Shown: positions 10,243-51,906 of the stretch, piece after piece
How the letters are laid out: each line of letters begins with the position of its first letter
How positions within the stretch are numbered: the first letter of the stretch is position 1
NCBI GenBank assembly: GCA_033549365.1
Contig: JAWSUF010000004.1
Span: 172,058-236,057 of the forward strand
Length of the DNA stretch: 64,000 nucleotides
Reading direction: 5' to 3'
From: Acidobacteriota bacterium
GTDB taxonomy: Bacteria; Acidobacteriota; Aminicenantia; Aminicenantales; Saccharicenantaceae
The notes under the pieces: generated by a model
Seen by the model: the letters and a program-made list of their open reading frames with translations, nothing else
Told to the model about the DNA's origin: nothing
Databases searched by the model: none
Translations under genes and position numbers: made by a program

Positions 10243-10251
10243 CGATTTCCC

Positions 10252-11782
10252 TTACCTTTTCCAGGAAAACCACTTTCCAAGGGCTTTTTTCAGGAAAGGT
10301 TTCATCAGGCCGGCGTAATACTGCCCGGAGGCCTGTTTGACGGCATCGGCCTGGGTGGGATAGGGATGGATGACCGAGGCGGCCAGGAGCTTGACCCCCT
10401 TGCCGGCGGCCATGACCGCGGTGATCTCACTGATCATCTCCCCGGCATGGCGGCCGACGATCGTTGCGCCCACAATCCGATCCTTCTCCTTCTTGACGTG
10501 GATTTTGACAAAACCGTTGTCTTCGCCGTCGAGGACGGCCCTGTCAACGTCTTTGAACGGGCGAACGAATGTCCGGACCTTGATCCCCGCGGCCTGGGCT
10601 TCCTTCTCGGACATCCCGACGTGGGCGATCTCGGGGTCGGTGTAGGTGCACCAGGGAATGGTCAGAGATTTCGTCTTCTTGCTTTTCAGGAAAAGGGCGT
10701 TCTGAACGACGATCCGGGCCGTCGCTTCGGCTATGTGGGTGAACTTGAAGGGGAAGGCGACGTCTCCCGCCGCGTAGATGCGCCGATTTGTCGTCTGAAG
10801 ATAACCGTTGACCTTGACGCCGGAGCGCGCATCGAAATCCACGCCGGCCGCTTCGAGATTCAGACCCTCGACGTTCGGAGCCCGGCCGGCACCGACAAGG
10901 ATTTCTTCGGCCTCGATCATCTCCTCGCGGCCGTCGACCGTGAAATGGATGCGTTTTTTTCCGTTCAAGACCGTCACCTGCGTGATCCGAGCATTGAGTT
11001 TGCAGACGATGTCTTCCTCGGCGAAAACGCAGCCCAGGAGCTCCGCTGCATCCCGGTCTTCCCGAGGCAGAAATTGAACGTCCCTCTGGATGATCGTGAC
11101 CTTCGAACCCAGGCGGCGGAAAGCCTGAGCCAGTTCGCAACCAATCGGCCCTCCGCCGATGACGGCCAGCGACTCCGGTCTTCGGGTCAGCGTAAATACC
11201 GTTTCATTGGTCAGAAACCCCGCCTCGGCCAGCCCTGGGATCGGGGGATGAATCGGCTTGGCTCCCGTGGCGATCAGGGCCTTGGCGAATTTCAGGAACT
11301 TTCCGCCGACCTCGATCCTGCGTTTGTCGAAGAAGCGGGCCTCCCCAAGGAACACGTCCACGCCCAGGCCTTTAAACCGTTCGGCCGAATCGTGTCCGCT
11401 GATCTGCGCCCGAAGGCGCCGCATCCGCTCCATGACTTTGGCGAAGTCGATATCGACAGGACCGCCCGCAACAATCCCGAAATCCGCGGCGTTCCGGATT
11501 TCGGCCGCGGTCCGGGAGGAACGGATGACGGCTTTGGAGGGCACACAGCCATAGTTCAGGCAGTCGCCACCCATCAGAGCTTTCTCGATGAGTGCCACCC
11601 TGGCCCCCACCGCGGCGCCCCCGGCCGCCGCGACCAGTCCCGCGGTGCCGGCGCCGATGACCACGAGGTTATAGCTCGAGGCCGGCTCCGGGTTCACCCA
11701 GGATGGGGGATGGGCGTTGGCGATCAGAACGTTATCGTGCGCGTCGCCGGGAACGACATGAAACGGTTTAGATTCGGGCATT
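10252..11782 (-). CDS. Class I pyridine nucleotide-disulfide oxidoreductase (dihydrolipoyl dehydrogenase/mercuric reductase family)
   Basis: Trimmed to MPESKPF..., which is preceded by a GGAGGG ribosome-binding site. Rossmann motifs are VVIGAGTAGLVAAA and GGDCLNYGCVPSK (redox-active CxxxxC). The C-terminal HPYPTQADAV resembles the Lpd HPT motif. Confidence 0.75.
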
Positions 11783-12478
11783 TTGACCCTCCTTCTCTCT
11801 GAGTTTTTTTCGGGCCTCCCGGACAAGAACCGCGAGTAGGGCCGCCACGGCCACGAGGACAAAAACCAGAACCCAGGGAATTCTTCTTTGGGCGACGGCG
11901 GTCGACACGGCATCCGAGCCCACGACGTAGAGGACCGTTCCCGGCAACATGCACAGCCAGGACCAGAAGACATAGGTCCGGAAGCGGACATGGGTCAGCC
12001 CGAAACCGAAATTGAGAAGATTGAACGGAAAGAGCGGCACGAGGCGGGTGATGGCGACGATCGCGGCCCCATGGTCTCTTGTCAGGCGGTCGAGCGATTG
12101 AAACTTGGCGTTCGTTTCGAATCGACGGGCGACGGAGTCTCTGGCGATATGCCGGGCGATCAGGAAGGCCAGGGCGGCGCCGATTGTCGAGCCGGCGCTG
12201 ACGACGGCGATACCGCGGACGGAACCGAAAAGGACGCCGGCCACGACGGTCACGGCCGAACCCGGAACGGCCAGGACCACGGCCGCAATATAGATCAGAA
12301 TATAAACGAAAGGTCCCCAACCGCCGAGAGCCAGAATCCAGGCCCGAAGTTCGCCGACGCGGCCGCCGAGGTCGAAAACGCGGGCCAGGACAATCAAGGC
12401 CAGAAGAACGGCGAAGAGGGCGATGGGTTTGGCGAGGCTCGGCTTTTTCGAGCCTGTTTCAGTTCTTTCCGGCGGCAA
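11768..12478 (-). CDS. DedA/TVP38/TMEM64 family membrane protein
   Basis: Polytopic membrane protein with the DedA-type core (GGWGPFVYILIYIAAVVLAVPGSAVTVVAGVLFG). Its start is uncertain: a TTG at about 12478 with a GGAGG ribosome-binding site would give a short overlap with the upstream gene, whereas the first in-frame ATG at about 12556 would overlap the radical SAM gene by about 100 nt. Confidence 0.6.
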   Translation of the reverse strand: MPPERTETGSKKPSLAKPIALFAVLLALIVLARVFDLGGRVGELRAWILALGGWGPFVYILIYIAAVVLAVPGSAVTVVAGVLFGSVRGIAVVSAGSTIGAALAFLIARHIARDSVARRFETNAKFQSLDRLTRDHGAAIVAITRLVPLFPFNLLNFGFGLTHVRFRTYVFWSWLCMLPGTVLYVVGSDAVSTAVAQRRIPWVLVFVLVAVAALLAVLVREARKKLREKEGQNARI

Positions 12479-13424
12479 GCGCGCCTCCGCAGGAGGATCC
12501 GAATCCGGCCGTGCAGCCGAAACAGTGATCTCCGGTCCGAATTTTTCTTGCGGCATACCTTTCCGGTTCGAAATGTTCGATCTTGCGGGGCAACCCGCCG
12601 CCGATGGGCAGTCCGAGGACCATGTTGAAATCGCAGTCATAAAGGGTTCCATCCCAGCCGATACTGATTTGACGGCGGCACATCAGATTGTCGACTGTCC
12701 GGCAATTGAACCTGTCGTGGAGGAGTTTCATGTACTCTCCATCCTTCATCTCCTGTTTCAGAGTCTCCCAGAATCGCCCGAGGGGCATGTTGGTGATCGT
12801 CAGAAGTTCCGTAAAGGCGATGCCGAATCGGCTGTCGAGTTCCCGGCGGTAGTCCTTTTCGAGTTCGAACTGGTTCGGCGGAAGAAATGGTCCGCCGGGA
12901 TTATAAACGAGTATCAAGGGCAGCTCCGGCGATCGGCCGTAACCGCGAGCATTGAGCCGGGTCAGCATTTCGACGCTCTTCCCGTAGACGCCGCGGCCTC
13001 TCTGTGCGCAGACGTTCTCTTCGAGATAGCAGGGAAGGGAGGCGACGAGACGGACACGGTTTTCTTTCAGGAATTCCGGCAGGTCCTCCAAGCCCGGCTC
13101 TGACAGCACCGTGAGGTTCGTCCGGAGTTGGACTGCATTCCCGCTTTCACGAAGCGCCCGGATGAAATCCCTGATCTGCGGGTGGAGTTCGGGAGCGCCT
13201 CCCGTAATGTCGACCAGTTCCGGCTTCACACGATCGGCCGCCGAAAGCACGGTCCTCATGACGGGCCGGGACATGGACTCCCACCGTTCCGGACCGCATT
13301 CCAGATGGCAGTGACGGCAGCTCAGATTGCACTTGAGCCCGACATTGACTTGGATGATGCCGATCCCGGCGGCGGTGAGATCCGATCGGCATTCGGATTG
13401 AACGCGGGTTGCAAAAGAGCTCAT
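12459..13424 (-). CDS. Radical SAM/Cys-rich domain protein (TIGR04167, ArsS-like)
   Basis: 321 aa. It has an N-terminal CNLSCRHC radical SAM motif and a C-terminal Cys-rich tail (DHCFGCTAGFGSSCGGA). This architecture matches the ArsS family. Confidence 0.65.
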   Translation of the reverse strand: MSSFATRVQSECRSDLTAAGIGIIQVNVGLKCNLSCRHCHLECGPERWESMSRPVMRTVLSAADRVKPELVDITGGAPELHPQIRDFIRALRESGNAVQLRTNLTVLSEPGLEDLPEFLKENRVRLVASLPCYLEENVCAQRGRGVYGKSVEMLTRLNARGYGRSPELPLILVYNPGGPFLPPNQFELEKDYRRELDSRFGIAFTELLTITNMPLGRFWETLKQEMKDGEYMKLLHDRFNCRTVDNLMCRRQISIGWDGTLYDCDFNMVLGLPIGGGLPRKIEHFEPERYAARKIRTGDHCFGCTAGFGSSCGGALAAGKN

Positions 13425-13495: not shown

Positions 13496-14245
13496 TTATC
13501 TCTTCGTGGCAACAAACCATGTCGATCCCGCCCGTGTTCGGACTCGGGCTGCGGGAAATCGCCGCCGGGCTTCATCGGGATTCCGGAGGAGGAGGTCGAC
13601 CACCCCGGCTTTTTCCGGACCCGCGGCAAGAACAAAGGCGTATCGGGAAACGATAATGGGAGGCAGAGTGAGCGTGATCCTCTTCCGCGGGGTCATGGCG
13701 CCGGGCGCCGTTACGCTTCGGACCCACCGTGTTCGCTCTTCGAGGACGGGGTCTTCAGGAAACAGCGAGGCCGTGTGACCGTCCGCCCCGACGCCGAGCA
13801 GAAACACATCAAAAGTCTTCTCCGGGGTGTCCCTGTCGCTTGACTCAAAGAATTTTCTCAGGATCTTCTCGTACGCAAGCGCGACTTCGGCGGGCGGCCC
13901 GATATCGACAGGCATGGGGTGGACATTTACAGCCGGGACGGGAATTCTTGAAATCAGAGTATCATGAGCCATGCGATAGTTGCTTGCCTGATCCGTCTTG
14001 GGAACCCAGCGCTCGTCTCCCCAAAAGAGATGAGTCCGGTCCCAGGGGATCCGCTTTTGATAATGCGCGGCGAGACATTCGTAAAGCCCTCGCGGAGTCG
14101 AACCTCCGGCGAGGGCGAGGGTGAATCGTTCCCGATTCCGGACGGTCTCGACGGCGACTTCGGCGAGGCGTTCGGCCAGGGCCCGATTTGCGTTGTCGAG
14201 CCGGTCGAATCGTAAGACTTCGGCATCCCTCACGTATTCAACCAT
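13496..14245 (-). CDS. pgl: 6-phosphogluconolactonase
   Basis: 249 aa with the DevB/Pgl pattern (FTLALAGGSTPRGLYE ... HLFWGDERWVP ... GADGHTASLFP). Confidence 0.85.
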   Translation of the reverse strand: MVEYVRDAEVLRFDRLDNANRALAERLAEVAVETVRNRERFTLALAGGSTPRGLYECLAAHYQKRIPWDRTHLFWGDERWVPKTDQASNYRMAHDTLISRIPVPAVNVHPMPVDIGPPAEVALAYEKILRKFFESSDRDTPEKTFDVFLLGVGADGHTASLFPEDPVLEERTRWVRSVTAPGAMTPRKRITLTLPPIIVSRYAFVLAAGPEKAGVVDLLLRNPDEARRRFPAARVRTRAGSTWFVATKR

Positions 14246-15681
14246 GACTGTCCGTCCCGGACGATCAGCGCGTCGGCCTCGGCCGGTCCCCAGGAGCCCG
14301 CTTGATAAAAGGACGGGAGAGAGCGTTTTTCAAGCAGAGGCGCATAGAGTCTCCATGACGTTTCCACCTCGTCCGATCTGACAAAGAGGGTTGGGTCGCC
14401 GGTGAGGACATCCCTGAGGAGTGTCTGATAGGCTTCCGGCAATTTCCCGAAGGCCTCGGCATAACGAAAACGCAGGTCTTCGGTCCTCAGTCGCAAGGGC
14501 TCTCCGGGTTCCTTGATATCAAAAAAGAGACGAAACCCCTCATCGGGCTGGACCGAGATCACCAGCCGGTTGGGCTCGATCCGGCAACCGCCGGAAGACT
14601 TGAACATACAGACGGGGGGGCGCCGGAAGTTTACGGCGATCCGGGTCAAGCGGCGGGCCAGGCGTTTTCCGGTCCGGAGGAAAAAGGGAACGCCCTGCCA
14701 CCGCCAGTTGTCGATTCGGACTCGAATGGCCACATAGGTTTCCGTGATGGAATCCGCACGGACACCCGGTTCTTCCCGGTAACTCCTGGCGGCATGTCCG
14801 TCGATCTCCCCGGTGGTGTATTGGCCGAAGACCGCGGATTCCGGCTCCAGGGGCCCGATGGACTGGAGGACCTTGAGTTTCTCGTTCCGGATCGACTCCG
14901 GATCGAAGAGGGCCGGCGGTTCCATCGCGACAAGGGCCAGGAGCTGCGTCAGGTGGTTCTGGATGATGTCGCGCAAGGCTCCCGCGCCGTCATAATAGCG
15001 GGCCCGATCTTCGACGCCGATCGTCTCGGCGGCGGTGATTTCCACGCTGCCGATCCTGTCCCGGTTCCACAGCGATTCGAAGATGGTGTTGGCGAACCGG
15101 AACACGAGAAGGTTTTGGACCGTCTCCTTTCCGAGGTAGTGGTCGATGCGGAAGATCTGAGGTTCATCGAAATACTTGAAGATCAATCTGTTTAAATCCC
15201 CGGCTGTGGCTCCGTCCCGGCCGAACGGTTTTTCAACGACGAGCCGGGTCCAGCCGTGGCTTCTGTTCAGGCCCGAGTCGCCGATGTGCCGGATGGCGTC
15301 GGGGAAAAGGGGTGGGGGGAGTGCGAGATAAAAGGTCCGGTTTCCCGGCAAACGATACGTCTTTTCAAGATCCGCGATGCGCGAAGACAGAACGGCGTTG
15401 CCGGCGGAAGAAAGGTCCACCGGTTGATAGTGAATGCAGGCGGAGCACCAGGCCCCGGCTTCAGCCTTGGAAAAGCCGGCCTGCGTCAGAGCTTCCGTGG
15501 TTTTTTTTCGGAAACCGTCATCGCCGATGTCTTTGGAGCCGACCCCGAGAATTCGACAGGTCTTTTCAAGGTGGGCTTGCCGGATCAATTCGTACAGGGC
15601 CGGGATGAGCTTTTTTTGGGCCAGATCCCCGGTCGCCCCGAAGATCACGAAAACATGAGGATCGATCGTTTTGTCCGCCAC
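14230..15681 (-). CDS. zwf: Glucose-6-phosphate 1-dehydrogenase
   Basis: 483 aa. The N-terminal VIFGATGDLAQKKL motif, the active-site region IDHYLGKE and the C-terminal domain are all present. The start is GTG. Confidence 0.9.
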   Translation of the reverse strand: MADKTIDPHVFVIFGATGDLAQKKLIPALYELIRQAHLEKTCRILGVGSKDIGDDGFRKKTTEALTQAGFSKAEAGAWCSACIHYQPVDLSSAGNAVLSSRIADLEKTYRLPGNRTFYLALPPPLFPDAIRHIGDSGLNRSHGWTRLVVEKPFGRDGATAGDLNRLIFKYFDEPQIFRIDHYLGKETVQNLLVFRFANTIFESLWNRDRIGSVEITAAETIGVEDRARYYDGAGALRDIIQNHLTQLLALVAMEPPALFDPESIRNEKLKVLQSIGPLEPESAVFGQYTTGEIDGHAARSYREEPGVRADSITETYVAIRVRIDNWRWQGVPFFLRTGKRLARRLTRIAVNFRRPPVCMFKSSGGCRIEPNRLVISVQPDEGFRLFFDIKEPGEPLRLRTEDLRFRYAEAFGKLPEAYQTLLRDVLTGDPTLFVRSDEVETSWRLYAPLLEKRSLPSFYQAGSWGPAEADALIVRDGQSWLNT

Positions 15682-15683
15682 GG

Positions 15684-16592
15684 CTATTCCTTCTTTTTAA
15701 TCTCGTGGCCGCCGAACTTTTTCCGAAGGACGGCCAGAACCCTGTCCGCAAAGCCGAAGCTGTCCTGCGAGTGGAAACGCTGCATGAGAGAAAGAGTGAT
15801 GACCGGCGCCGTTTGACCTTGCTCGATCGCCTCCATCACGGTCCAACGTCCCTCTCCGGAATCGGAGACATAAGGCAAAACGGCGTCCAAACCATGATCT
15901 TCAGCAAGGGCTTCCGCCGCGAGGTCGAGGAGCCAGGATCGGACGACGCTCCCGAATCGCCAGATCTCGGAGATTCGGTGGAGATCCAAGTCGAACTCGG
16001 TTTTGCCTTTCATGAGGGCGTAACCCTCCGCATAGGCCTGCATCAGCCCGTATTCGATGCCGTTGTGGATCATTTTGACGAAATGACCGGCCCCGGAAGG
16101 TCCGACATGTCCCCAGCCCTTATCCGGGGCGGGGGCCAGAGTTTCGAAGATGGGACGGAGATGCCGAACGGCATCTTCTTCGCCGCCGATCATCAAACTG
16201 TAGCCTTCCTTGAGGCCCCAGATCCCCCCGCTTGTCCCGCAGTCCACATAATGGATCTTCTTCTCCCGCAGCTCCAAAGCCCTGCGCATCGTGTCCTTGT
16301 AAAAGGAGTTGCCGCCGTCGATGATGACGTCGTCGGGCGCCAGCATCGGGACAAGGGTTTCAAGGGTCTCGTCAATGGGCTTTCCTACGGGGATCATGAT
16401 CCAGATCACCCGCGGCGGAGCCATGTGTGACACGAGATCCTCCAGGGAAGAGGCTCCGACAATGCCTTTTTTCTCGGCGGCTTCGATCGTCTCGGCATGG
16501 CGGGCGTAACCGATGACCCGGTGACCTCCGGCTGCAAGTCGTTCGGCCATGTTGCCGCCCATGCGGCCGAGTCCGATGACGGCAAGTTCCAT
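15684..16592 (-). CDS. gnd: 6-phosphogluconate dehydrogenase (decarboxylating), short GndA/YqeC-like form
   Basis: 302 aa. It has an N-terminal Rossmann fold (MELAVIGLGRMGGNMAERL) and 6PGDH catalytic-domain motifs (DGGNSFYKDT, GTSGGIWGL). Confidence 0.85.
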   Translation of the reverse strand: MELAVIGLGRMGGNMAERLAAGGHRVIGYARHAETIEAAEKKGIVGASSLEDLVSHMAPPRVIWIMIPVGKPIDETLETLVPMLAPDDVIIDGGNSFYKDTMRRALELREKKIHYVDCGTSGGIWGLKEGYSLMIGGEEDAVRHLRPIFETLAPAPDKGWGHVGPSGAGHFVKMIHNGIEYGLMQAYAEGYALMKGKTEFDLDLHRISEIWRFGSVVRSWLLDLAAEALAEDHGLDAVLPYVSDSGEGRWTVMEAIEQGQTAPVITLSLMQRFHSQDSFGFADRVLAVLRKKFGGHEIKKKE

Positions 16593-16604
16593 GATTCTCC
16601 TCCT

Positions 16605-17558
16605 TTATGTTCTCTCCCGGGCCAGGGCGGCCGCTCCGATGGTCCCGGCCTGTGTCCCCAATGCCGCGCGGACGATCATCAGCCCTTCCGACGCCGCTTC
16701 GAGAGCCCGGCTGCGGACGGTCTTCTCAATAATAGAGATCATTTCGGGGAGCCCCTCGATGACACCGCCGCCGAGGACAAGGCGACAGGGGTTGAAAGCA
16801 TTGACGACGCCGACTAGACCTTGGCCGAGGAGGTCCGCCGTTTCCTCGATCAGCCGCCGGGCCAGGGCGTCTTGTGCACCGAACGCCCGGGCAACGGTCT
16901 CCGCCGTGATGTCTTCGACGCTTCCGGCCAGGGAGACCAGGCGTTGTCCCGCGACCGGGTCGGAGCGGACTGAGGCCTGCGCTCGTTCGGCGATGGCCCA
17001 GCCGCCCGCGTAGGCTTCCAGGCAGCCGTGGTTGGGGCAATGGCATTTCCTCCCGTCCCGGACGATGACCATATGACCGAGCTCTCCGGCGGCGTTCCCG
17101 CAGCCTTCGAGGACCCGGCCGCCGCTGACGACCCCCCCGCCAATGCCCGTTCCGACGAAGACGACAACCAGATCGTCGGTGCCCCGTCCGGCGCCATGAC
17201 GCCATTCCCCCCAGAGGGCGGCTCGCACGTCGTTGATGACGGCAACGGGCAACCCGGTTTTGGCTTCGAGAAGCGATTTGAGAGGAACATCGGTCCAGCC
17301 GAGGTTCGGAGAGGCCCGGACGACGCCCTCTTTGTCGACTTGGCCGGCAACGCCGATGCCCAGGGCTGTGGCCCGCCCGGCACCCTTGTCCAGGCACTTA
17401 TCGATGCAGTTGACGATATCGTCGATGATCCTTTTCGGCCCGCGGTCCGGATGAGTCGGCTCTCGATGGGAGGACAGGACCCGGCCCCGTTCATCGATAA
17501 GGGCCGTCTCGACTTTTGTCCCTCCCAGGTCTATGCCGAGAGTTTTTATCTCTTTCAT
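16605..17558 (-). CDS. ROK-family glucokinase
   Basis: Trimmed to the internal ATG MKEIKTLGIDLGGTKVE... The ROK signature and zinc motif are present (CHCPNHGCLE), along with GVGTGIGGGVV. Confidence 0.8.
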   Translation of the reverse strand: MKEIKTLGIDLGGTKVETALIDERGRVLSSHREPTHPDRGPKRIIDDIVNCIDKCLDKGAGRATALGIGVAGQVDKEGVVRASPNLGWTDVPLKSLLEAKTGLPVAVINDVRAALWGEWRHGAGRGTDDLVVVFVGTGIGGGVVSGGRVLEGCGNAAGELGHMVIVRDGRKCHCPNHGCLEAYAGGWAIAERAQASVRSDPVAGQRLVSLAGSVEDITAETVARAFGAQDALARRLIEETADLLGQGLVGVVNAFNPCRLVLGGGVIEGLPEMISIIEKTVRSRALEAASEGLMIVRAALGTQAGTIGAAALARERT

Positions 17559-17665
17559 CGTCCGCCTTTCAAAAATGACGGAAAACTGCAGGTCGTAATT
17601 CGGTTGCATGATTCCCTGGAGAAACAAATCCGACGGCATGATTTTAGGATATTGAATGGGAGCAT

Positions 17666-20320
17666 TCAACCGGTCTCCTTGATGAGGTTGGCGATCAGGG
17701 CCGTCCAGCCTGTTTGATGAGAGGCTCCGATCCCCCTGCATGTGTCTCCATGGAAATGTTCGTAGAAAAGGACCAGATTCCGAAAATAGGGGTCGTCGGC
17801 ATAACGGGTCTCACGGCCGTGGATCGGGCGGCGGCCTTTGTCGTCTTCGAAAAAGATGCTGCAAAGCCGATGGGCCAGCCGGCGGGCGACCTCTCCCAGC
17901 TCGGCTGTCTGCCCCGACCCTGTGGGGCACTCAACCTGAAAAGAATCGCCGAAATAGTGTCCGAATAGCTTGAGAGATTCGATCAGAAGATAGTTGGTCG
18001 GCATCCAGATCGGGCCCCGCCAGTTGGAGTTTCCTCCAAAGAGAGAGCTTGTCGATTCCCCCGGCTCATAGGGGATGCTGAAGCGACCACCGGGCAGGGA
18101 CAGCGAAAAGGGGCGATCCCGATGTTCTTTGGATAGGGACCGAATGCCGCCCGGGGCCAGAAATTCCTTTTCGTCCAGAACCCGTTTGAGGATGCGGGCG
18201 AGGTGATCCCTCTTGAGCAGGGAGAAGAGGATCGTCTCGACGCCGGAGATCTCTTCGACGACGAGGCTCTTGTCCAGGGCCTTGCGGTTCTCGCGGAACC
18301 AGCGCAGCCGCTTCGCGAATCCCGGGAACTTCGTCAAAATGGAGGAATCCATGACGGCCACGGCATACAGAGGGATGATGCCGACGAGAGACCGGATTTT
18401 CAGCTCGATCGAGCGGCCGTCGTCGGAGTGGACGGCGTCGTAGAAGAAACCGTCCTCTTCATTCCAGAGCCGGACCCGGTCTTCGCCGCCCCAGCTGTTG
18501 AAAGCTTCGGCGATGTGAGCGAAGTGTTCGAAGAACTTGGAGGCCACGTCCTCATAGGCCGGATCGGTCGCGGCGATCTCCAGGGCGATGACCATCATAT
18601 TCAATGCGTACATCGCCATCCAACCTGTGGCGTCGGCCTGCTCGAGATGCCCGCCCGTCGGCAAAGGCCGGCTTCGGTCGAAGATTCCGATGTTGTCGAG
18701 GCCCAGGAACCCGCCTTGGAAGATGTTGCGCCCTTCGAGGTCTTTGCGATTGACCCACCATGTGAAGTTGAGCAGGAGTTTGTGGAAGGTCCGTTTCAGG
18801 AATGCGACGTCTCCTCGCCCCGTCATCTCCCTTTCGATTTCGTAGACGCGCAGGCAGGCCCAGGCATGGACGGGAGGATTGACATCTCCGAGGGCCCACT
18901 CGTAGGCCGGGAGCTGGCCGTTCGGATGCATATACCATTCCCTCAGAAACAGAATGAGCTGTCTCTTGGCATCGTGGGGGTCGATCAGGGCGAGAGAGAC
19001 ACAGTGAAAAGCGAGATCCCATGTCGCATACCAGGGGTATTCCCACTTGTCGGGCATGCTGATGACATCGCGATTAAAGAGATAGGGCCAGTCGGCGTTC
19101 CGACCCCGCTTTCTGGATTCCGGCGGCCGGGGCTGCCCGGGGTCGCCCCGGAGCCAGGTTTCGATCTCGTAGTTGTAATATTGTTTCGACCACAGGAGTC
19201 CGGCGAAGGCCTGGCGTTGGACGAGAGCCGCATCGGGACCGGCGCCGGGCGGAACAAAAGGCGCATAAAACGCATCCGCCTCGGACAGCCGGGCTTTGAG
19301 AACGGCTTCGGTATCGTGGAAAGGGTCGTCTTCGGAATTCTGAGCGGCGAATCTCAACCAGATCGTCCGATCCCCGCCGGCCGGAACGGTGAGTCGGTAG
19401 ACAAAGGCGGCCTTTGTCCCTTCTTTAGAGTCCGGCGGGTTCGGCGGTTGGCCGTGGACGATGATAGAGTGGAAGGCGTCTTTCGTCCGAGGACTCGGAT
19501 TATTGACGCCGAAGAGCCGCTCGTAGTTGGTCTCGTTTTCCGTGAACAGGACGTCATCCGCGCTCTGCCCGAAGAGGAACGTGCGGCCCAGCGTCTCGTG
19601 TTCGGCCCGGAGGGCCCGGACGTTCCCGCCGGCAGGGATCTCTCGAATGGAAGGCTTCTTCTTGATCTTGCCGAAGGACCAGGTGTTCCGGAACCAGAGC
19701 GTGGGAAGCACGGTGATCTCTGCCGCCTCGGCTCCGCGATTGAAGACGGCGATCTTGATGAACATGTCATCGAATTCCCGCTTGGCGTACTCCACGAAGA
19801 CGTCGAAATAGGCGTTGTGGTCGAAAAGGCCGGTGTCGAGCAGCTCGTATTCGGGCTCGGTCTTCGACCGCCTACGGTTCTCAGCTCTGAGCTCTTCATA
19901 GGGGAACCGCTCATGGGGATATTTGTAGAGATATTTCATGTAAGAATGGGTCGGCGTGTTGTCCAGATAATAATAGAGCTCTTTGACGTCCTCGCCGTGA
20001 TTGCCCTCGTTGCCGGTCAGGCCGAACAGCCTCTCCTTCAGGATCTCGTCCTGCCCGTTCCAGAGCGCCAGAGCGAAACAGAGGTCCTGGTTGATGTCCG
20101 AAATGCCGGCGATCCCGTCTTCTCCCCAACGGTAGGCTCGGGACCGGGCATGGTCGTGCGGGAAGTCCTCCCAGGCCGTCCCGTTTTCACTGTAGTCTTC
20201 TCGGACCGTGCCCCATTGCCGCTCGCTCAGATAGGGGCCCCATTTCTTCCAAAAAACCCGGTGCTCATTGTTGTCTGCGAGCCGCTTCCTTTCCGCTCCC
20301 CCAGCTTTTCCTTCGGCCAT
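17666..20320 (-). CDS. GH63-like glucosidase (MGH1-like, processing alpha-glucosidase I family)
   Basis: 884 aa. The N-terminal block FWKKWGPYLSERQWGTVREDYS...FPHDHARSRAYRWGEDG is characteristic of bacterial GH63/mannosylglycerate-hydrolase-like enzymes, and a large (alpha/alpha)6 C-terminal domain follows. Confidence 0.7.
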   Translation of the reverse strand: MAEGKAGGAERKRLADNNEHRVFWKKWGPYLSERQWGTVREDYSENGTAWEDFPHDHARSRAYRWGEDGIAGISDINQDLCFALALWNGQDEILKERLFGLTGNEGNHGEDVKELYYYLDNTPTHSYMKYLYKYPHERFPYEELRAENRRRSKTEPEYELLDTGLFDHNAYFDVFVEYAKREFDDMFIKIAVFNRGAEAAEITVLPTLWFRNTWSFGKIKKKPSIREIPAGGNVRALRAEHETLGRTFLFGQSADDVLFTENETNYERLFGVNNPSPRTKDAFHSIIVHGQPPNPPDSKEGTKAAFVYRLTVPAGGDRTIWLRFAAQNSEDDPFHDTEAVLKARLSEADAFYAPFVPPGAGPDAALVQRQAFAGLLWSKQYYNYEIETWLRGDPGQPRPPESRKRGRNADWPYLFNRDVISMPDKWEYPWYATWDLAFHCVSLALIDPHDAKRQLILFLREWYMHPNGQLPAYEWALGDVNPPVHAWACLRVYEIEREMTGRGDVAFLKRTFHKLLLNFTWWVNRKDLEGRNIFQGGFLGLDNIGIFDRSRPLPTGGHLEQADATGWMAMYALNMMVIALEIAATDPAYEDVASKFFEHFAHIAEAFNSWGGEDRVRLWNEEDGFFYDAVHSDDGRSIELKIRSLVGIIPLYAVAVMDSSILTKFPGFAKRLRWFRENRKALDKSLVVEEISGVETILFSLLKRDHLARILKRVLDEKEFLAPGGIRSLSKEHRDRPFSLSLPGGRFSIPYEPGESTSSLFGGNSNWRGPIWMPTNYLLIESLKLFGHYFGDSFQVECPTGSGQTAELGEVARRLAHRLCSIFFEDDKGRRPIHGRETRYADDPYFRNLVLFYEHFHGDTCRGIGASHQTGWTALIANLIKETG

Positions 20321-20354
20321 CGGTCTATCTCCTTCGCTCCGCCGGACGCTCTCC

Positions 20355-21170
20355 TCACCCTCCCGAGGTAAAGCCCGGATAAAGGGTCATGCCGCCGTCG
20401 ACGAAGATCGTCGTTCCGTTGACGTAGTCCGAGTCGTCGCCGGCCAGCCAGACCGCGGCGGCCGCGATGTCGCCCGGTTCTCCGAGCCGCCCGTACGGGA
20501 TCAATTTCATCATCCCCTCGCGCCCCTCCGGCGTCGACCAGGCGGAACGGTTGATCGCGGTCTTGACAGCCCCGGGTGCGATGCTGTTGACGCGGATCTT
20601 GTGAGGGGCGAGCTCCTGGGCCAGCGTCTTCATGAGGAGGAGGACACCGCCCTTGGAAGCGGCGTAGTTGGCGTGGTTGGCCCAGGGAATGATCTCGTGG
20701 ACCGAGCTGATACAGATGATCTTTCCCGCCGCCGAGGAGATCTCCGGCTGAACGCCCCGGCGCAGGAACTCGCGGGCCGCCTCCCGGGCACAGAGGAACT
20801 GCCCGGTGAGGTTGATGTCGATCACTTTCTGCCAATCCGCGAGGCTCATCGAAACGACCGGGGAATCCTTCTGGATGCCCGCGTTGTTGACGAGGATGTG
20901 GACGGTGCCGAAGCGTGCGATCGCGGCTTGGAACATGCGGGCGACCTGGTCCTCCCGGCTGACGTCCGCCTGGAACGTCATGGCCTGGCGGCCCTCTTTC
21001 GTGAGGTCGACGGCCATTTGCTCCGCGGGCTCGCGCCGGGTGCCGTAGTTGATGACCACGTTGGCCCCGGCCCGGGCCAGGGCCATGGCGACGCTTTGGC
21101 CGATCCCCGAGCTCGCTCCGGTGACGACCGCGGTTTGACCCGACAATCTCTCAGACAGGGTGTTTTCCAC
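20355..21170 (-). CDS. gdh: Glucose 1-dehydrogenase (SDR family)
   Basis: Trimmed to a GTG start (VENTLSERLSGQTAVVTGASSGIG) with an AAGGAG ribosome-binding site 6 nt upstream. The sequence is collinear with Bacillus GDH (NNAG, SSVHEIIPWANHANYAASKGG, GDDSDYVNGTTIFVDGGMTLYP). Confidence 0.8.
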   Translation of the reverse strand: MENTLSERLSGQTAVVTGASSGIGQSVAMALARAGANVVINYGTRREPAEQMAVDLTKEGRQAMTFQADVSREDQVARMFQAAIARFGTVHILVNNAGIQKDSPVVSMSLADWQKVIDINLTGQFLCAREAAREFLRRGVQPEISSAAGKIICISSVHEIIPWANHANYAASKGGVLLLMKTLAQELAPHKIRVNSIAPGAVKTAINRSAWSTPEGREGMMKLIPYGRLGEPGDIAAAAVWLAGDDSDYVNGTTIFVDGGMTLYPGFTSGG

Positions 21171-21180: not shown

Positions 21181-23193
21181 TTAAGATCGCGTTCCCGGCT
21201 CAAATGTGTCCAGCGCCTCGAGAAGGGTCCCCACAGACCAGGCTTGGGCGAAGCAACCGCCGGGCGCGTGCGGCGAATCGCCGTCCACGACCTCCGAGAT
21301 ATGGCCGAGGCCGGCTTCGGACAGATGCCGGAACAGGGGGGCGATCTGATGGCGCAAGACGCGCCCCGTGGGGCGGGGCTTTCCGTAGGCATAGGCATAG
21401 GCCTGAAGATAAGGCCCGATCAACCACGGCCAGGCCGTGCCCTGATGATAAGCGGAATCTCTCTCAACGGGGTCCCCACGATAGCGGGGCCGATAATCCG
21501 GATGGTTTCGGTCAAGAGTCCTCAGCCCCAGAGGCGTCAGGAGGTGCTTTTTGACGGAGGCGAGCATGTGACGCGCCCGCGTCCGGCTCAGCAGAGGAAA
21601 AGGCAGGGCCGCGGCGAAGATCTGGTTGGGCCGGATGGTCGCGTCCTTGTTCGGGCCGTCGACGACATCGTAAAGGCATTTCTCTTCGGGATTCCAGAAC
21701 CGGCGGACGAATTCCCGGCGCGTTTGTCGCGGGTCGAGAGGGAGGGACGGAGCCTTCTTCAGCCGGCTCTTGAACCGCTCGAGAATGAAGAGGACGTTGA
21801 TCCACAGGGCGTTGACCTCGACCGGCTTACCGAAGCGCGGGGTGATCACCTTGTCGCCGACCTTGGCGTCCATCCAGGTCAGCTGTGTTCCCGGCCCGCC
21901 CGCCGCAAGCAGACCGTCCGCGGCGACCCTGATCCCGAATCTCGTCCCTTTGATGTGTTCCGAGGCGATCTCGTCCAGCCGGGGGGATATCTCCTCCAGG
22001 AAGGCTAGATCTCCGGTTTTTTCGAAGTACTTGTGAAGAGCGACGACGAACCACAGGGTCCCATCCGCCGAATTGAATTCCGGTGGTTGCCCTCCGTCCG
22101 GAAAAAGATTGGGGATCATCCCCCGGTCGATGAACGAAGCGAAGGTCCTCAGGACAGCCTTGGCCTCGTCATACCGGCCCGTGGCCAGGGCCAAGCCGGG
22201 CAAGGCGATCATCGTGTCCCTGCCCCAGTCCGTGAACCAGGGGTAGCCGGCGATGACCGTCTCGGACCGGGTGGATTCACGCTTCACGATGTGCTCGTCG
22301 GCGGAGAGGACGAGCCGAGCCCGTTCGGGGGACAGGGCCCCGGCTTGATGGGCCAATAACTCCTCTTTCCTCCTCACGAACGTTACGAGGCTTGCAGGCG
22401 CCTCTCCCCCCAGCTCGAACGGAGGGACCGGCGTGTCCGTCGAAAGCCTCAGGAAAAGCGGAGTGCCGGGCGAAAGGTCCGTCTCAATGAAGCCGGGGCT
22501 GAAAAGGTCCTCCTGGAAATCGAGCCCCCGCTCCCGCTCCAAGGCATATTCCGTGCGGTAGTACCAGTCGCTTTCGGGATGGAACGATCCCTGGGACCAA
22601 GCGACAAAATAGGGAACGGCGTCGGGGGAGGATCGAACGTCCAAATGGAATTCTTCTCGGCGGATCAAGTAACGATCCGGGTCATCCGAAGCTCGCTGCA
22701 TCCCGTGATAATCCCGGTCGTTCAGCATGGGACGAAGGCGTATTCGGAGACTCTCTTTCCCATGCCATGCATATCGGATGAACGTCGTGTTCCTGCCGTG
22801 CTCCATCCAGATGGCTTTCGTCAGGGGGGCTCCACCCACCTCGTAGGAAAAAAGAGGATGGAATTTGAAATCGAAAGAAGTGAGATAGACGTGTCCTTGG
22901 GGATGGATCACGCCGGGATACTGGTGGACGCCGAGCTCGAACGACCTCTCCCCGAGAATGACCGTCTCATCGACGGAACTCACGAGGATGCGTCTCTGGA
23001 CCGGCGGGTGCAGGGAGGCCACGAGGAGGCCATGATAGCGGCGCGTGTTCAGCCCGATCACGGACGAGGAGGCAAAACCCCCGATGCCGTTCGTGACCAG
23101 CCATTCCTTACCATGTGCGGCGCCGATGTCGTGAAGGACGTCCGGTCCGAACCGGAAGGAAAGCGGGCCCGGCGCGGCGCCGCGTTCGCTCAT
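21181..23193 (-). CDS. Glycogen debranching enzyme family protein (GDE N-terminal domain plus amylo-alpha-1,6-glucosidase, archaeal/bacterial type)
   Basis: Trimmed to MSERGAAPGPLSF..., whose ATG overlaps the upstream stop as ATGA. The N-terminal region GKEWLVTNGIGGFASSSVIGLNTRRYHGLLVA and the C-terminal catalytic domain (AGYPWFTDWGRDTMIALPGL...) are typical of this family. Confidence 0.7.
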   Translation of the reverse strand: MSERGAAPGPLSFRFGPDVLHDIGAAHGKEWLVTNGIGGFASSSVIGLNTRRYHGLLVASLHPPVQRRILVSSVDETVILGERSFELGVHQYPGVIHPQGHVYLTSFDFKFHPLFSYEVGGAPLTKAIWMEHGRNTTFIRYAWHGKESLRIRLRPMLNDRDYHGMQRASDDPDRYLIRREEFHLDVRSSPDAVPYFVAWSQGSFHPESDWYYRTEYALERERGLDFQEDLFSPGFIETDLSPGTPLFLRLSTDTPVPPFELGGEAPASLVTFVRRKEELLAHQAGALSPERARLVLSADEHIVKRESTRSETVIAGYPWFTDWGRDTMIALPGLALATGRYDEAKAVLRTFASFIDRGMIPNLFPDGGQPPEFNSADGTLWFVVALHKYFEKTGDLAFLEEISPRLDEIASEHIKGTRFGIRVAADGLLAAGGPGTQLTWMDAKVGDKVITPRFGKPVEVNALWINVLFILERFKSRLKKAPSLPLDPRQTRREFVRRFWNPEEKCLYDVVDGPNKDATIRPNQIFAAALPFPLLSRTRARHMLASVKKHLLTPLGLRTLDRNHPDYRPRYRGDPVERDSAYHQGTAWPWLIGPYLQAYAYAYGKPRPTGRVLRHQIAPLFRHLSEAGLGHISEVVDGDSPHAPGGCFAQAWSVGTLLEALDTFEPGTRS

Positions 23194-23399
23194 GAGGCCT
23201 TGTGCGAAGAGCGGGCCCGGCCTTTCAACCAGAGGCCCGCGCCCACGACCAGGCTGACGACGAAGACGATGAGAGAGATCGTGAAAGCCCGGCTCTCGAG
23301 CTCTTTCCAGGACCCGATGGCGACTTCGGCCCAGAAGGCAAGCCAGAGGAGCCAGAGGCCGCGCGTCAGCCAATGAAGCCAGTTTTTCCGGCGATTCAT
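23190..23399 (-). CDS. Small two-transmembrane-helix membrane protein, candidate reductive dehalogenase anchor (RdhB-like)
   Basis: 69 aa (MNRRKNWLHWLTRGLWLLWLAFWAEVAIGSW...FTISLIVFVVSLVVGAGLWLKGR) with two predicted transmembrane helices. It lies immediately downstream of rdhA, 5 nt after the rdhA stop, in the usual rdhAB arrangement. Its size is comparable to PceB-type anchors. Confidence 0.45.
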   Translation of the reverse strand: MNRRKNWLHWLTRGLWLLWLAFWAEVAIGSWKELESRAFTISLIVFVVSLVVGAGLWLKGRARSSHKAS

Positions 23400-23403
23400 G
23401 ACC

Positions 23404-24747
23404 TTAACCTTTCCTCGGCCGGGTATCGATCCCGTATTCGGGAATATCCAGCGTCCACCATTCGGCCGCATCGCGTTGCCGGCCGTAGCCGAAAGCCTTG
23501 TCCATGGTCGTAAAAAAGCCGCTGAGCGCGGGAATCTTGGCGCCGGCGGTTTTGACGATCTCGTGGATCATGGTCTTGTCCTTTTTGGACCAGGGACAGA
23601 CGCCGACGCAGATGCTGCATCCCGAGACCGATTCCTGCCAGTAGGCGAAGCACTTGGGTTCATCCTCGAACCAGGCCTTATGGCCGGGATTGTTCCATTC
23701 CCCCTTGACTTCAAACGACGGTTCGTCGTCGAAGGACAGGGCTCGGGGGTGGCACGCCTCCGCGCAGCGTTTGCAGATCCTGCAAAATTCAAGCAACCCG
23801 AAATCGATGGGTTTATCGACAGCCAGGGGCAGATCGGTCAGGACCTTGGCCAGACGGACGTTGGGTCCGTATTCGGGAGTGACGAGCCGGTTGGTTCGGC
23901 CCAGCTCGCCGAGGCCGGCATCGACGGCGATGGCCACGCTGGAACCCAAGTCATTGACGCTCGGAATGGCGACATAGCCCAATCCGCGGATGAATTCAGC
24001 GAGGGATGCGACCAGGAATTCCGCCCGGCTGTAGCCGAGCGACGCCCCGGCACTGCCGACGGCGGTGGGGGAGCACTGAATGTTATCGAGAGATTGATGG
24101 ATGCTCACGGCAACGGCGTATCGGCAGGCATCGGGAATGACGAGTTTTTCGGAGGTGTCGTAAGGCTCATCGACGGGCTCGAAGACGATATCCCGGCCCA
24201 TCTCCCGGGAATGGATATGCCGGCGGTCCAGGATCGCGATCCCCGTGGTCGCCGCCCCGAAATAGCGGGCGGCTTGTTTGATAATCCGGGCCGCCTCTTC
24301 CGGGGTTCCTTGGTACCTGTCGAAACCGCGGTCGGCCGGTGAAGGTATGGATCGGCGCGTCCAGGATCGGAGGCCTCGATTCAATCCGCCCGCCCTCGAG
24401 ACCGTCCAAGCGGCGTCGGCCAGAGCATGGTCCTGGAGACGGTAGCCGGGCTTGTTTTCCCGATAGTAAAGCTGCTCCAGCTCCAGACTCCGGACCCTCA
24501 GTTCCTTGGCATTGTCCAGGCCGTAGTACTTGATGAATGACCCAAAGACGTTTTTCGAAGCATCGAATCGGGAATAGACATCGTCCTGGATGGGCAGTTT
24601 CGGGCTGTCGATCTCCTTGACCCACCAGGGGCGTCCGTGGGGTCCGGTGCGCGAGACGAACCCTTCATTCCCCTGAAACGGCCGTCCCGCCCCGAGTGCC
24701 AACCCCGCGCTTCCGATCCCATACTTGAAAAAATCTCTTCTTTGCAT
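23404..24747 (-). CDS. rdhA: Reductive dehalogenase homologue (RdhA; Tat-exported corrinoid/Fe-S protein)
   Basis: Trimmed to MQRRDFFKYGIGSAGLALGAG, a twin-arginine signal, with an AAAGGAG ribosome-binding site. Length is about 447 aa. The two C-terminal ferredoxin-type motifs are CRICKRCAEACHP and CSICVGVCPW (CxxCxxCxxxCP followed by CxxCxxxCP), as in the RdhA family TIGR02486. Confidence 0.8.
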   Translation of the reverse strand: MQRRDFFKYGIGSAGLALGAGRPFQGNEGFVSRTGPHGRPWWVKEIDSPKLPIQDDVYSRFDASKNVFGSFIKYYGLDNAKELRVRSLELEQLYYRENKPGYRLQDHALADAAWTVSRAGGLNRGLRSWTRRSIPSPADRGFDRYQGTPEEAARIIKQAARYFGAATTGIAILDRRHIHSREMGRDIVFEPVDEPYDTSEKLVIPDACRYAVAVSIHQSLDNIQCSPTAVGSAGASLGYSRAEFLVASLAEFIRGLGYVAIPSVNDLGSSVAIAVDAGLGELGRTNRLVTPEYGPNVRLAKVLTDLPLAVDKPIDFGLLEFCRICKRCAEACHPRALSFDDEPSFEVKGEWNNPGHKAWFEDEPKCFAYWQESVSGCSICVGVCPWSKKDKTMIHEIVKTAGAKIPALSGFFTTMDKAFGYGRQRDAAEWWTLDIPEYGIDTRPRKG

Positions 24748-24818
24748 CGCAAACTCCTTTGAGGAGAATTCCCGCGCTCGCTCACAGGAGGGTGCCGGGT
24801 GGACAATCCTAGAAACGC

Positions 24819-24848
24819 GGATAAGGCTTTTATACCGGCATCCGGAAA
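24819..24848 (-). promoter_or_regulatory. Putative sigma70 promoter for rdhAB (TTGACA-18 nt-TATAAA on the minus strand)
   Basis: The minus-strand reading is cgccTTGACAggggtttccggatgccggTATAAAagcc, about 70 nt upstream of the rdhA ATG, inside a lower-GC intergenic region. Confidence 0.4.
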
Positions 24849-24858
24849 CCCCTGTCAA

Positions 24859-24887
24859 GGCGATAAAATTGATTTCTTCTTTGTTTA
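24859..24887 (+). promoter_or_regulatory. Putative sigma70 promoter (TTGATT-17 nt-GATAAT) reading into the ABC ATPase remnant
   Basis: The plus-strand sequence is TTGATTtcttctttgtttattgtGATAAT, about 20 nt upstream of the ATG at 24909. Confidence 0.3.
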
Positions 24888-24908
24888 TTGTGATAATCTC
24901 CTTCCAGG

Positions 24909-32240: not shown

Positions 32241-32326
32241 GCCGGGGTGGCGGAAATGGCAGACGCAAGGGACTTAAAATCCCTCGCCCCGTAAGGGGCA
32301 TACGGGTTCGATTCCCGTCCCCGGCA
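32241..32326 (+). tRNA. tRNA-Leu (anticodon UAA), class II with a long variable arm
   Basis: GCCGGGGTGGCGGAAATGGCAGACGCAAGGGACTTAAAATCCCTCGCCCCGTAAGGGGCATACGGGTTCGATTCCCGTCCCCGGCA. The 7-bp acceptor stem is GCCGGGG/CCCCGGC. The anticodon loop is CUUAAAA with anticodon UAA, followed by a long variable arm and a T-arm GGTTCGATTCC. No CCA is encoded. Confidence 0.8.
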
Positions 32327-45459: not shown

Positions 45460-45990
45460 TTAGTCCTTGAGAAGCTGGTAAATGACGTTCCGGTCCTCCC
45501 AGGCCTTGCTGCGCTCGTAGGCGTCGATGGGGAATTCGACCTGCTTGAGTTCGACGGGCGCCGCCTTCTTGTCGACCAGGCCGAGCGCCAGGGCCACGCC
45601 GTAAATGATGGCCTCAGGCCGGGGAGGGCAACCGGGGACATAGAAGTCGACGGGCACGGCCTGGGCCCCGCCGCCGGTGACATTGTACGTGTCGAACCAG
45701 CAACCGCCTCCGACCGCGCAGGAGCCGATGCCGAAGACGATTTTCGGGGCGGGGATGGCCGCATGAGCCCTGCGGACCAGGGGCAGCGTCGGACGCGTGA
45801 CCGAACCGGACAGCAGCATGACGTCGGCGTGCCGCGGCGAGCCGACGAGCCGGATCCCGAAGCGCTCGACGTCGTAGTAGGGCGTCAGGACATTCAGGAT
45901 TTCAATGTCGCAGCCGTTGCAGGCGCCGCTGTTGCAGTGATAGACCCAGAGGGATTTGGGAAAGAATTTTTTCGATAACTTGGCCAGCAT
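45460..45990 (-). CDS. Group 4 [NiFe] hydrogenase small subunit (HycG/NuoB family)
   Basis: 176 aa. The proximal-cluster Cys motifs are HCNSGACNGCD, GIGSCAVGGGCW and VPGCPPRPE. Confidence 0.85.
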   Translation of the reverse strand: MLAKLSKKFFPKSLWVYHCNSGACNGCDIEILNVLTPYYDVERFGIRLVGSPRHADVMLLSGSVTRPTLPLVRRAHAAIPAPKIVFGIGSCAVGGGCWFDTYNVTGGGAQAVPVDFYVPGCPPRPEAIIYGVALALGLVDKKAAPVELKQVEFPIDAYERSKAWEDRNVIYQLLKD

Positions 45991-45991
45991 G

Positions 45992-51900: not shown

Positions 51901-51906
51901 GGGCGT

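Follow-up and report, generated by a model that had tools for sequence, protein, structure and literature searches.

In a 64,000-nucleotide stretch of a metagenome-assembled genome (MAG) assigned to the Acidobacteriota (contig JAWSUF010000004.1), referred to here as the window, two adjacent minus-strand genes probably encode a minimal reductive dehalogenase of the respiratory type, composed of a catalytic subunit, RdhA, and a small membrane protein serving as its RdhB, and working by the mechanism proposed below. The catalytic gene, rdhA (23404..24747, (-); MDW7760611.1), specifies 447 amino acids (aa), and the rdhB-like gene directly 3' of it (23190..23399, (-); MDW7760610.1) specifies a two-helix membrane protein of 69 aa, which is followed by a gene for glycogen debranching enzyme (21181..23193, (-); MDW7760609.1). 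In the NCBI records of this MAG, the three products are already named 'reductive dehalogenase', 'hypothetical protein' and 'amylo-alpha-1,6-glucosidase', respectively. The annotation of the large protein, the presence of rdhA in Aminicenantes and the existence of two-helix RdhBs are thus already known; new here are the proposed RdhB assignment of the 'hypothetical protein' family and the clade-specific promoter and operon context of the gene pair.

An earlier note on this DNA, made from the sequence alone, had described the large protein as a 447-aa RdhA exported by the twin-arginine translocation (Tat) pathway, and this description is upheld by profile, sequence and structure comparisons. The protein scores 274.7 bits against the NCBIfam model TIGR02486 (cut-off 160.35) and 65.4 bits against Pfam PF13486 (cut-off 24.3), and Dehalogenase and 4Fe-4S dicluster are the only Pfam domains found in its 447 aa. 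Compared with the sequences of all solved structures, it gave 219.6 bits with PceA of Sulfurospirillum multivorans (SmPceA; PDB 4UQU/4UR3), 177.9 with PceA of Desulfitobacterium hafniense (DhPceA), 100 with the catabolic enzyme NpRdhA (PDB 4RAS/6ZXU) and 35 with the epoxyqueuosine reductase QueG. An AlphaFold (AF2) model built from 55 relatives reached a mean predicted local distance difference test score (pLDDT) of 85.9, only the signal peptide being disordered, with low pLDDT at residues 1-35. In Foldseek comparisons of this model, the query-normalised template modelling (TM) scores were 0.75 for SmPceA (4UR3, E = 8e-32), 0.69 for DhPceA, 0.64 for NpRdhA and 0.33 for QueG, and the target-normalised scores for the last two were 0.42 and 0.39; a PceA-like corrinoid-binding fold is predicted on this basis. 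SmPceA is accordingly the best match in both sequence and structure, although the whole Foldseek alignment is only about 28-30% identical. The earlier note had named a best homology to QueG as grounds for abandoning the assignment, but besides the low TM score the QueG model TIGR00276 yielded only 48.6 bits, over 68 residues, where its cut-off is 200.

On a core of 208 residues, the window protein is 43% identical to SmPceA, 41% to DhPceA, 32% to NpRdhA and 30-35% to three Dehalogenimonas RdhAs. In a neighbour-joining tree of this core, which is rough, with few references and without bootstrap support, the RdhA family lies beside the two PceAs and apart from both the Dehalogenimonas RdhAs and NpRdhA. 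By these comparisons, the window protein groups with RdhAs of the exported, RdhB-docked PceA type and not with the catabolic NpRdhA. It shares with NpRdhA the corrinoid/Fe-S core fold, yet it differs from that enzyme, and from the hybrid RdhAs with N-terminal transmembrane helices that also occur in Aminicenantes (PMC6797604), in having a Tat signal, in lacking a fused reductase module or membrane helices, and in having its predicted anchor encoded by a separate gene. Between the window and L001, a related locus whose RdhA is 87% identical, the ratio of nonsynonymous to synonymous substitution rates (dN/dS) of rdhA is 0.076.

The residues expected at the active site and at the Fe-S clusters are present. 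Tyr246, Asn272 and Arg305 of SmPceA align with Tyr239, Asn265 and Arg298 of the window RdhA, the catalytic pair Y337/R396 of DhPceA being the counterpart of SmPceA Y246/R305. In an alignment of 107 family sequences, Tyr239 and Asn265 are invariant, Arg298 occurs in 91 and is replaced by Gln in 16, and all eight cluster cysteines are conserved without exception (107/107). Fe-S motif 2 (C366-x10-C377-S-I-C380-V-G-V-C384-P; 23593..23652, (-)) is as described in the earlier note, and the Pro after C384 is invariant in the family. Motif 1 (C322-R-I-C-K-R-C-A-E-A-C332-H-P; 23746..23784, (-)) had been given there as ending in CP and needs correction: it reads CxxCxxCxxxC-H-P, with His333 (residues 333-334 span window 23746-23751) at a position where 105 of the 107 relatives carry Pro, and P0001 is the only other examined relative shown with His after the last cysteine of this motif.

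The RdhA product begins MQRRDFFKYGIGSAGLALGAG, which is an exact fit to the RRxFxK Tat consensus (PMC6797604). The Tat motif, R3-R4-D-F-F-K8, lies in a signal peptide region of approximately residues 1-30 (24658..24747, (-)) and is followed by a G/A/L-rich h-region ending in G-A-G. The arginine pair is kept in 97-100 of the 107 relatives and the pattern RR-D-F-F/L-K is conserved, and Tat-dependent export of RdhA, predicted from the conserved RRDFFK, is supported to this extent. The open reading frame (ORF) itself spans 23404..24858 (-); translation probably begins at the ATG at 24747, with the Shine-Dalgarno sequence AAAGGAG (24754-24760) seven bases ahead of it, giving the 447-aa product.

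The partner assignment concerns the small protein, which the earlier note had regarded as a two-helix anchor in the canonical rdhAB layout. Its hydropathy profile shows two hydrophobic segments, and its AF2 model (pLDDT 75.6) consists of helices 5-32 and 36-67 joined by the three-residue turn E33-L-E35 (23295..23303, (-)). A homologous small ORF lies directly 3' of rdhA in all 20 related loci that extend past rdhA (13 from the first two sets, together with L099-L101, L016 and L102-L104), and the layout therefore stands as described. The distance had been put at 5 nt and is in fact 4 nt (GGTC), from the TAA stop of rdhA to the ATG at 23399. Of the first 13 loci, eleven have a corresponding gap of 3 nt, one has 6 nt and L006 has 4 nt (as given by the gene call); elsewhere, L101-L104 again show 3 nt, and the distance rises to as much as 37 nt in L099. 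The Shine-Dalgarno sequence of the small gene sits inside the 3' end of rdhA. A longer form of the small ORF, of 93 aa and beginning at 23471, was rejected, because it would overlap rdhA by 66 nt and because the start in the relatives lies 3-37 nt past the stop codon of rdhA.

The small ORF evolves as a protein-coding gene, as indicated by its dN/dS of 0.32 between the window and L001. Neither glutamate of the ExE motif varies in an alignment of 14 sequences or in one of 50, and even at L016, where RdhA is only 50% identical, the small ORF reads ...SEYESRA.... An exhaustive profile search of 1.84 billion representatives recovered 89 clusters (at 50% identity) with E <= 1e-3, all of them two-helix proteins, and the ExE glutamates are kept in the distant members found in this way. 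The Aminicenantes-type family carries the signature FWAEVAIGSxKExExRAF. ExE is a conserved RdhB feature on the outer (P) side of the membrane (PMC10624902, PMC6797604), and RdhB is described in PMC12219181 as typically having two or three helices.

Profile-level links to recognised RdhB families are present at the margin of detection. A precomputed match to PF27193 (VcrB) exists for the identical sequence P0233 (= MDW7760610.1) and for about 14 of 120 relatives, and the PF27193 matches at neighbour genes of relatives are marked as weak or faint; our own Pfam scan of the small protein returned no PF27193 match at E<=10, the Pfam copy used apparently being without that model. Comparison by hhalign with the 72-aa two-helix RdhB of a Dehalogenimonas locus (L018, 9465-9683) covered both helices at E = 2.9e-4, but with a probability of 40% and an identity of 27%, and a three-helix Dehalogenimonas RdhB of 93 aa gave no significant match (E = 0.08). 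The 72-aa protein resembles the window protein in its length of about 70 aa, its two hydrophobic helices with acidic residues between them and its position directly after rdhA. Unlike the short RdhBs of Dehalococcoidia, the Aminicenantes-type proteins have their own signature and form a separate small family, and the partner RdhAs of the two kinds are only 30-35% identical. A Foldseek search with the hairpin model retrieved generic helical hairpins only, none at E <= 0.001. Taken with position, architecture and the ExE motif, this borderline sequence similarity supports the candidate assignment of the small protein as a two-helix RdhB. At L099, the gene finder missed the small rdhB-like ORF, which does exist there (8382-8555), and since the members are labelled 'hypothetical' everywhere else, the family appears to be under-annotated.

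The C-terminal part of RdhA provides a further point of contact with the known complex. In the PceA2B2 structure of D. hafniense TCE1 (PDB 8Q4H; PMC10624902), TMH2 and TMH3, the second and third transmembrane helices (TMHs) of PceB, form a four-helix bundle around menaquinone together with alpha17 and alpha18 of PceA. The equivalent region of the window RdhA comprises residues 386-422 (23482..23592, (-)), which the AF2 model folds into helices 393-404 and 406-419, and its residues W386, K388, H395, K399, D416 and Y421 align with DhPceA W487, K489, H495, R499, D515 and Y520. These six docking positions are invariant or almost so in the RdhA family. The same residues occur in Dehalogenimonas RdhAs, whereas in the cytoplasmic NpRdhA three of the positions are occupied by Gly, Ala and Asn. 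The C-terminal residues support docking of the window RdhA on an RdhB, a point also made in PMC10624902, and not, by themselves, the use of quinol; interface residues as proof of quinol use were considered and dropped, given their presence in the Dehalogenimonas enzymes as well.

The window locus thus resembles PceA2B2 in a predicted Tat-exported RdhA with a corrinoid and two [4Fe-4S] clusters, in a small cofactor-less membrane subunit encoded immediately 3' whose ExE motif would lie in an outward loop (E61 and E63 in PceB), and in the residues W, K, H, K/R, D and Y at the RdhA C-terminal interface. It differs in that the anchor has two helices instead of three, lacking TMH1, which makes the PceB-PceB contact, in that pceC and pceT are absent from the locus, in that the locus is not on a transposon, and in that the small protein has no profile match to PceB.

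From these comparisons, a mechanism can be proposed for the locus. By analogy with the known biology of the family, RdhA would receive its corrinoid and two [4Fe-4S] clusters in the cytoplasm and then be exported in the folded state via Tat. The 69-aa protein would insert as a helical hairpin, its basic ends (MNRRK... and ...KGRARSSHK) remaining cytoplasmic and the E-L-E turn lying outside; the turn is placed outside because both ends are basic and ExE is at the turn, in keeping with the positive-inside rule. On the model of the PceA2B2 structure determined by cryogenic electron microscopy, the hairpin would correspond to the TMH2-ExE loop-TMH3 portion of PceB without TMH1, and would pack on the two C-terminal helices of RdhA, so that the enzyme remains attached to the membrane from outside. 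Electrons would enter at the interface between RdhA and the hairpin and cross the two clusters to the corrinoid, where the organohalide would be reduced with Tyr239 as proton donor and with the assistance of Arg298 and Asn265. The donor is envisaged to be menaquinol, which is the least certain step. In evolutionary terms, rdhAB is regarded as an ancestral two-gene cassette of the Aminicenantes group that would not need dedicated accessory genes nearby, and in the genus-level clade of the window this cassette would have gained a sigma-70-type promoter and come to stand before an array of genes for glycogen debranching, glucose oxidation and the pentose-phosphate pathway.

For menaquinol as the donor, which is proposed by analogy, the balance is close to even. 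Quinol is indirectly favoured by the closeness of the RdhA core (43% and 41%) to SmPceA and DhPceA, which belong to quinone-using bacteria, and likewise by the presence in the same window of a DmsABC-type reductase with a DmsC quinol anchor. This DMSO/selenate-family enzyme is encoded 34 kb away (58983-63049, (+)), with matches to DmsA (TIGR02166, 908 bits), DmsB (TIGR02951, 227 bits) and the DmsC anchor (Pfam), and constitutes a second predicted quinol-dependent periplasmic reductase in the window.

Several points weigh against the interpretation of the locus as a complete, quinol-linked and jointly transcribed respiratory module. The docking residues are not diagnostic of quinol use, because quinone-independent Dehalogenimonas RdhAs carry them too, and rdhA-like genes of the quinone-independent type are reported from Aminicenantaceae in PMC12219181. 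The small protein shows weak homology to canonical RdhB, as the hhalign probability quoted above illustrates; its NCBIfam scan gave no match, and a profile of 14 small proteins searched against all PDB sequences did not find PceB and returned a chance-level SdhC hit (E = 2.7). The -10 hexamer of the promoter-like element described below is without its most conserved final T, and it is because TATAAA ends in A, not T, that a stricter sigma-70 consensus scan did not list TTGACA-N18-TATAAA. Finally, rdhAB and the sugar genes are probably co-transcribed, although this is deduced from their spacing alone.

The promoter-like element TTGACA-N18-TATAAA (24829..24858, (-)) lies 111 nt 5' of the rdhA ATG and is the only match to TTGACA-N16-19-TATAA in the 64 kb, where 0.01 would be expected from shuffled sequences. 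It falls within a 161-bp spacer (24748-24908) of 49% GC, compared with 61% for the window, and both the promoter and the lower-GC spacer had been pointed out previously. The element is found at the same place in the two closest lineages, as TTGACA-N18-TATAAG in L001 and as TTGACA-N18-TATAAA in L102; its distance from the rdhA start is 111-125 nt in the window and L001, and its position in L102 is similar. The genes located 5' of rdhA differ, being an ABC-transporter remnant in the window, a DsrE-like gene in L001 and a CoA-transferase gene in L102. Since the element is conserved across three lineages despite differing upstream genes, a real promoter and a shared transcription unit in the window clade are plausible on sequence grounds. 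In the 5' leader between this element and rdhA (24748..24828, (-)), Rfam detected nothing even at E <= 1, the tRNA-Leu (anticodon TAA) at 32241-32326 (+) being the sole RNA gene detected in the window, and the predicted fold of the leader is ordinary (z = -1.2); a riboswitch or structured leader was therefore dropped as a candidate, in line with the earlier statement that no B12 riboswitch is visible.

Upstream of the promoter, the truncated 5' fragment of an ABC-transporter ATPase gene (24909..~25290, (+)) diverges from rdhA. Its Walker A motif, GPSGCGKS, is intact, but residues 26-87 match only positions 2-63 of the 137 in ABC_tran, in agreement with the earlier description of a decayed remnant. 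The ATPase part makes up the first ~90 residues of the divergent ORF, after which it meets an FAD-oxidoreductase gene of the opposite strand at that gene's 3' end (from 25293), and no continuation of the ATPase was found in other reading frames at the fragment. Because the fragment is truncated and the upstream neighbours differ in L001 and L102, the remnant is read as the mark of a rearrangement whose breakpoint lies immediately 5' of the rdhA promoter.

On the other side of the pair, the ATG of the debranching gene (23193-23191) overlaps the TGA of the small ORF (23192-23190) as ATGA, as had been noted before, and the terminator scan found no terminator-like site between rdhA and the next genes. 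The debranching enzyme is identified by GDE_N, GDE_C and TIGR01561 (452 bits). Downstream of it, a sugar array on the same strand (13496..21170, (-)), identified by Pfam and NCBIfam matches, comprises in order a short-chain dehydrogenase/reductase (SDR) resembling glucose 1-dehydrogenase (20355-21170, (-); GTG start at 21170, 10 nt after the debranching gene's stop), a GH63/MGH1-like hydrolase (17666-20320, (-)), a ROK kinase, a 6-phosphogluconate dehydrogenase (6PGD)-like protein, glucose-6-phosphate dehydrogenase (G6PD) and 6-phosphogluconolactonase. The genes are separated by small gaps or overlap, and transketolase, RpiB and a PGI-like gene lie farther downstream. The location among sugar-metabolism genes sets the window apart from S. 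multivorans, in which pceA presumably lies in a large dedicated organohalide-respiration region including corrinoid biosynthesis genes.

The unusual coupling to carbohydrate genes emphasised in the earlier note is real, but its range is narrow. In L001, the array is retained as far as the contig reaches, and in L102-L104 (RdhA 92% identical) the same order follows rdhAB through to the lactonase gene. In these three loci, a BioB-like radical-SAM gene (335 aa, below all cut-offs; 2020-3027 in L102) stands between rdhB and the debranching gene, and the SDR gene has shrunk to a 46-aa remnant (5044-5184 in L102). The linkage is absent in 15 loci at 50-71% RdhA identity, where the neighbours differ each time (for example uvrBC, feoAB, alanine racemase, murB, beta-lactamase-like and mtrAH). 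As a negative control, 80 debranching loci were taken from a metagenome scan that supplied distant homologues only (39-47% identity); none of these has rdhA or rdhB nearby, and 28 keep a GH63-like neighbour. The position in the sugar array is thus real but confined to the closest relatives (RdhA 87-92% identical). Because the link vanishes beyond them, the conserved unit is the two-gene rdhAB cassette and the sugar linkage is a local arrangement, and the suggestion in the earlier note of a lineage whose rdhA homologues are not tied to dedicated respiratory operons agrees with the occurrence of the pair in unrelated neighbourhoods at the 15 loci.

The same note had raised horizontal acquisition as a question to be judged by composition. 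GC content, GC content at third codon positions (GC3) and codon usage of rdhA and rdhB equal those of their neighbours, and there is therefore no sign of recent import; a recent horizontal acquisition of rdhAB was dropped on these grounds. The closest homologues carry the name Candidatus Aminicenantes. As a side observation, the synonymous divergence (dS) between the window and L001 is 1.11 for rdhA and 0.62 for the debranching gene, yet RdhA is the more conserved protein (87% versus 78% identity), and this difference between adjacent genes may be saturation noise.

The gene family and the host group are those of published surveys of rdhA in Aminicenantes and marine Acidobacteriota (PMC6472368, PMC12219181, PMC8528874). 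Two of them report 31 rdhA genes in 22 MAGs, mainly of Aminicenantes and Bathyarchaeota (PMC6472368), and 56 Acidobacteriota MAGs with rdhA-like genes (PMC12219181), and in the portions consulted of all three, neither the two-helix partner family nor the glycogen/pentose-phosphate operon context is described.

The accessory genes rdhC, rdhT and rdhK are variable companions of respiratory rdhA and are not obligatory. Among the annotated larger ORFs of the window, none was recognised as rdhC-like (FMN_bind/Fer4_5), trigger-factor-like, of the CRP/FNR type or cobamide-related, which matches what had been said earlier of rdhC/K/T regulators and corrinoid genes, and in most relatives no rdhC, rdhT or rdhK adjoins rdhAB. 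This absence is compatible with function, because rdhAB alone is regarded as a minimal respiratory module, PceA2B2 being the minimal module that takes electrons from menaquinol (PMC10624902). The P0060 locus (on a 608-kb JGI contig, 59% identical) differs: a second, 502-aa rdhA, a 99-aa RdhB of the VcrB family and an FMN_bind/Fer4_5 (RdhC-like) gene follow there (9757-12847), which shows that an rdh cluster of more canonical make-up is also carried by some genomes in the wider group. At L101 (1610-10024), a tandem rdhA-rdhA-rdhB arrangement lies directly 3' of MtrA, MtrH, methionine-synthase-like and MTHFR genes, a corrinoid methyl-transfer set.

Among the competing explanations, the one that keeps the same enzyme and location but assigns it to a non-energy-conserving electron sink, or to detoxification, re-oxidising reduced carriers while glycogen or glucose is burnt, and not to organohalide respiration, is unlikely. 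Such a role would explain the promoter shared with sugar genes in the window lineage, and it draws on the position of rdhAB at the head of the array of debranching enzyme, glucose dehydrogenase, G6PD and 6PGD in the window, L001 and L102-L104, on a formate-hydrogenlyase-like hydrogenase in the window that is typical of fermenters, on the lack of rdhC, rdhK and rdhT among the window ORFs, and on the electroneutral character of the PceA2B2 step itself (PMC10624902). The sugar linkage, however, is not a property of the enzyme family, because it is absent from the 15 loci and from the 80 distant debranching loci described above, and sequence alone cannot tell a sink from respiration.

A more elaborate extension of the respiratory interpretation, which we consider speculative and improbable as a whole, would combine both aspects. 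In this scenario, rdhAB would be the promoter-proximal part of a single transcription unit that also takes in the genes for debranching of glycogen, for oxidation of glucose and for the oxidative branch of the pentose-phosphate pathway, giving storage-fuelled facultative organohalide respiration in a fermentative, uncultured lineage, perhaps with the anchor as a monomeric quinol site, a role that the minimal anchor may play because it is without the dimerising helix of PceB. If such a single transcription unit were real, organohalide reduction would be a dedicated outlet for the reducing power of mobilised glycogen.

It is quite improbable that the protein, as a corrinoid/Fe-S reductase of the RdhA family, acts naturally on something other than an organohalide. 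Family members are unusually alike, at 59-92% identity across lineages in which the upstream intergenic DNA runs from visibly AT-rich to G+C-rich, and there is usually one copy per locus without a substrate-sensing regulator, whereas specialist dehalogenators have diversified multi-copy rdhA sets (three copies in L018); both features would suit such a substrate. The catalytic Tyr, Asn and Arg are conserved all the same, the TIGR02486 score is well over its cut-off and the nearest fold match is PceA. To our knowledge, moreover, no alternative chemistry exists for exported RdhA/RdhB pairs.

A catabolic cytoplasmic dehalogenase of the NpRdhA/BhbA type, the non-respiratory option raised in the earlier note, or a QueG, is scarcely credible, for although NpRdhA and QueG are detectable relatives and one JGI record labels a homologue 'epoxyqueuosine reductase', both are ruled out by the conserved Tat signal, the adjoining RdhB partner, the absence of an NAD(P)H or ferredoxin-reductase module from the 447 aa, docking residues that NpRdhA has lost, and the sequence (100 bits for NpRdhA against 220 for PceA), profile and structure scores given above.

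If the interpretation of the pair as a minimal respiratory-type RdhA and RdhB is correct, approximately 90 sequence clusters of 'hypothetical protein' could be named as two-helix RdhB, and this naming would help to class many Aminicenantes rdhA genes as membrane-anchored and respiratory in type, not cytoplasmic. The hairpin would then represent a natural minimal anchor, retaining the counterparts of the ExE loop and of the two helices that surround the quinone in PceA2B2 and dropping the third helix, and comparison with it would help to show what RdhB cannot do without. A uniform, mostly single-copy rdhAB that has neither regulators nor accessory genes and is tied in one clade to the catabolism of glycogen and glucose would further suggest that abundant fermenters of sediments routinely use natural organohalides. 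The implications are modest, and current views are not overturned by the finding.

Other features of the window were recorded alongside the dehalogenase locus. Two adjacent URO-D-family genes (39676-41962, (-)) lie beside a GH31 glycosidase gene; their best matches, below cut-off, are to MtaA/CmuA methylcobamide:coenzyme M methyltransferases, and no other genes with a possible link to corrinoids were seen in the window. The formate-hydrogenlyase-like cluster (45460-55016, (-)) encodes a formate-dehydrogenase-like molybdoenzyme, an Fe-S protein and a proton-antiporter-like subunit, together with a fused 30/49-kDa NiFe large subunit, an HycD-like subunit, a ferredoxin and a 20-kDa small subunit. 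An arsenosugar-type cassette (8950-13424, (-)) breaks up the pentose-phosphate array. Its products are an ArsS radical-SAM protein, with 403 bits against TIGR04167 (cut-off 300), a glycosyltransferase in which TIGR04282 and TIGR04283 are fused, an FAD oxidoreductase with 768 bits against NF004991, and a membrane protein of the VTT/DedA type.

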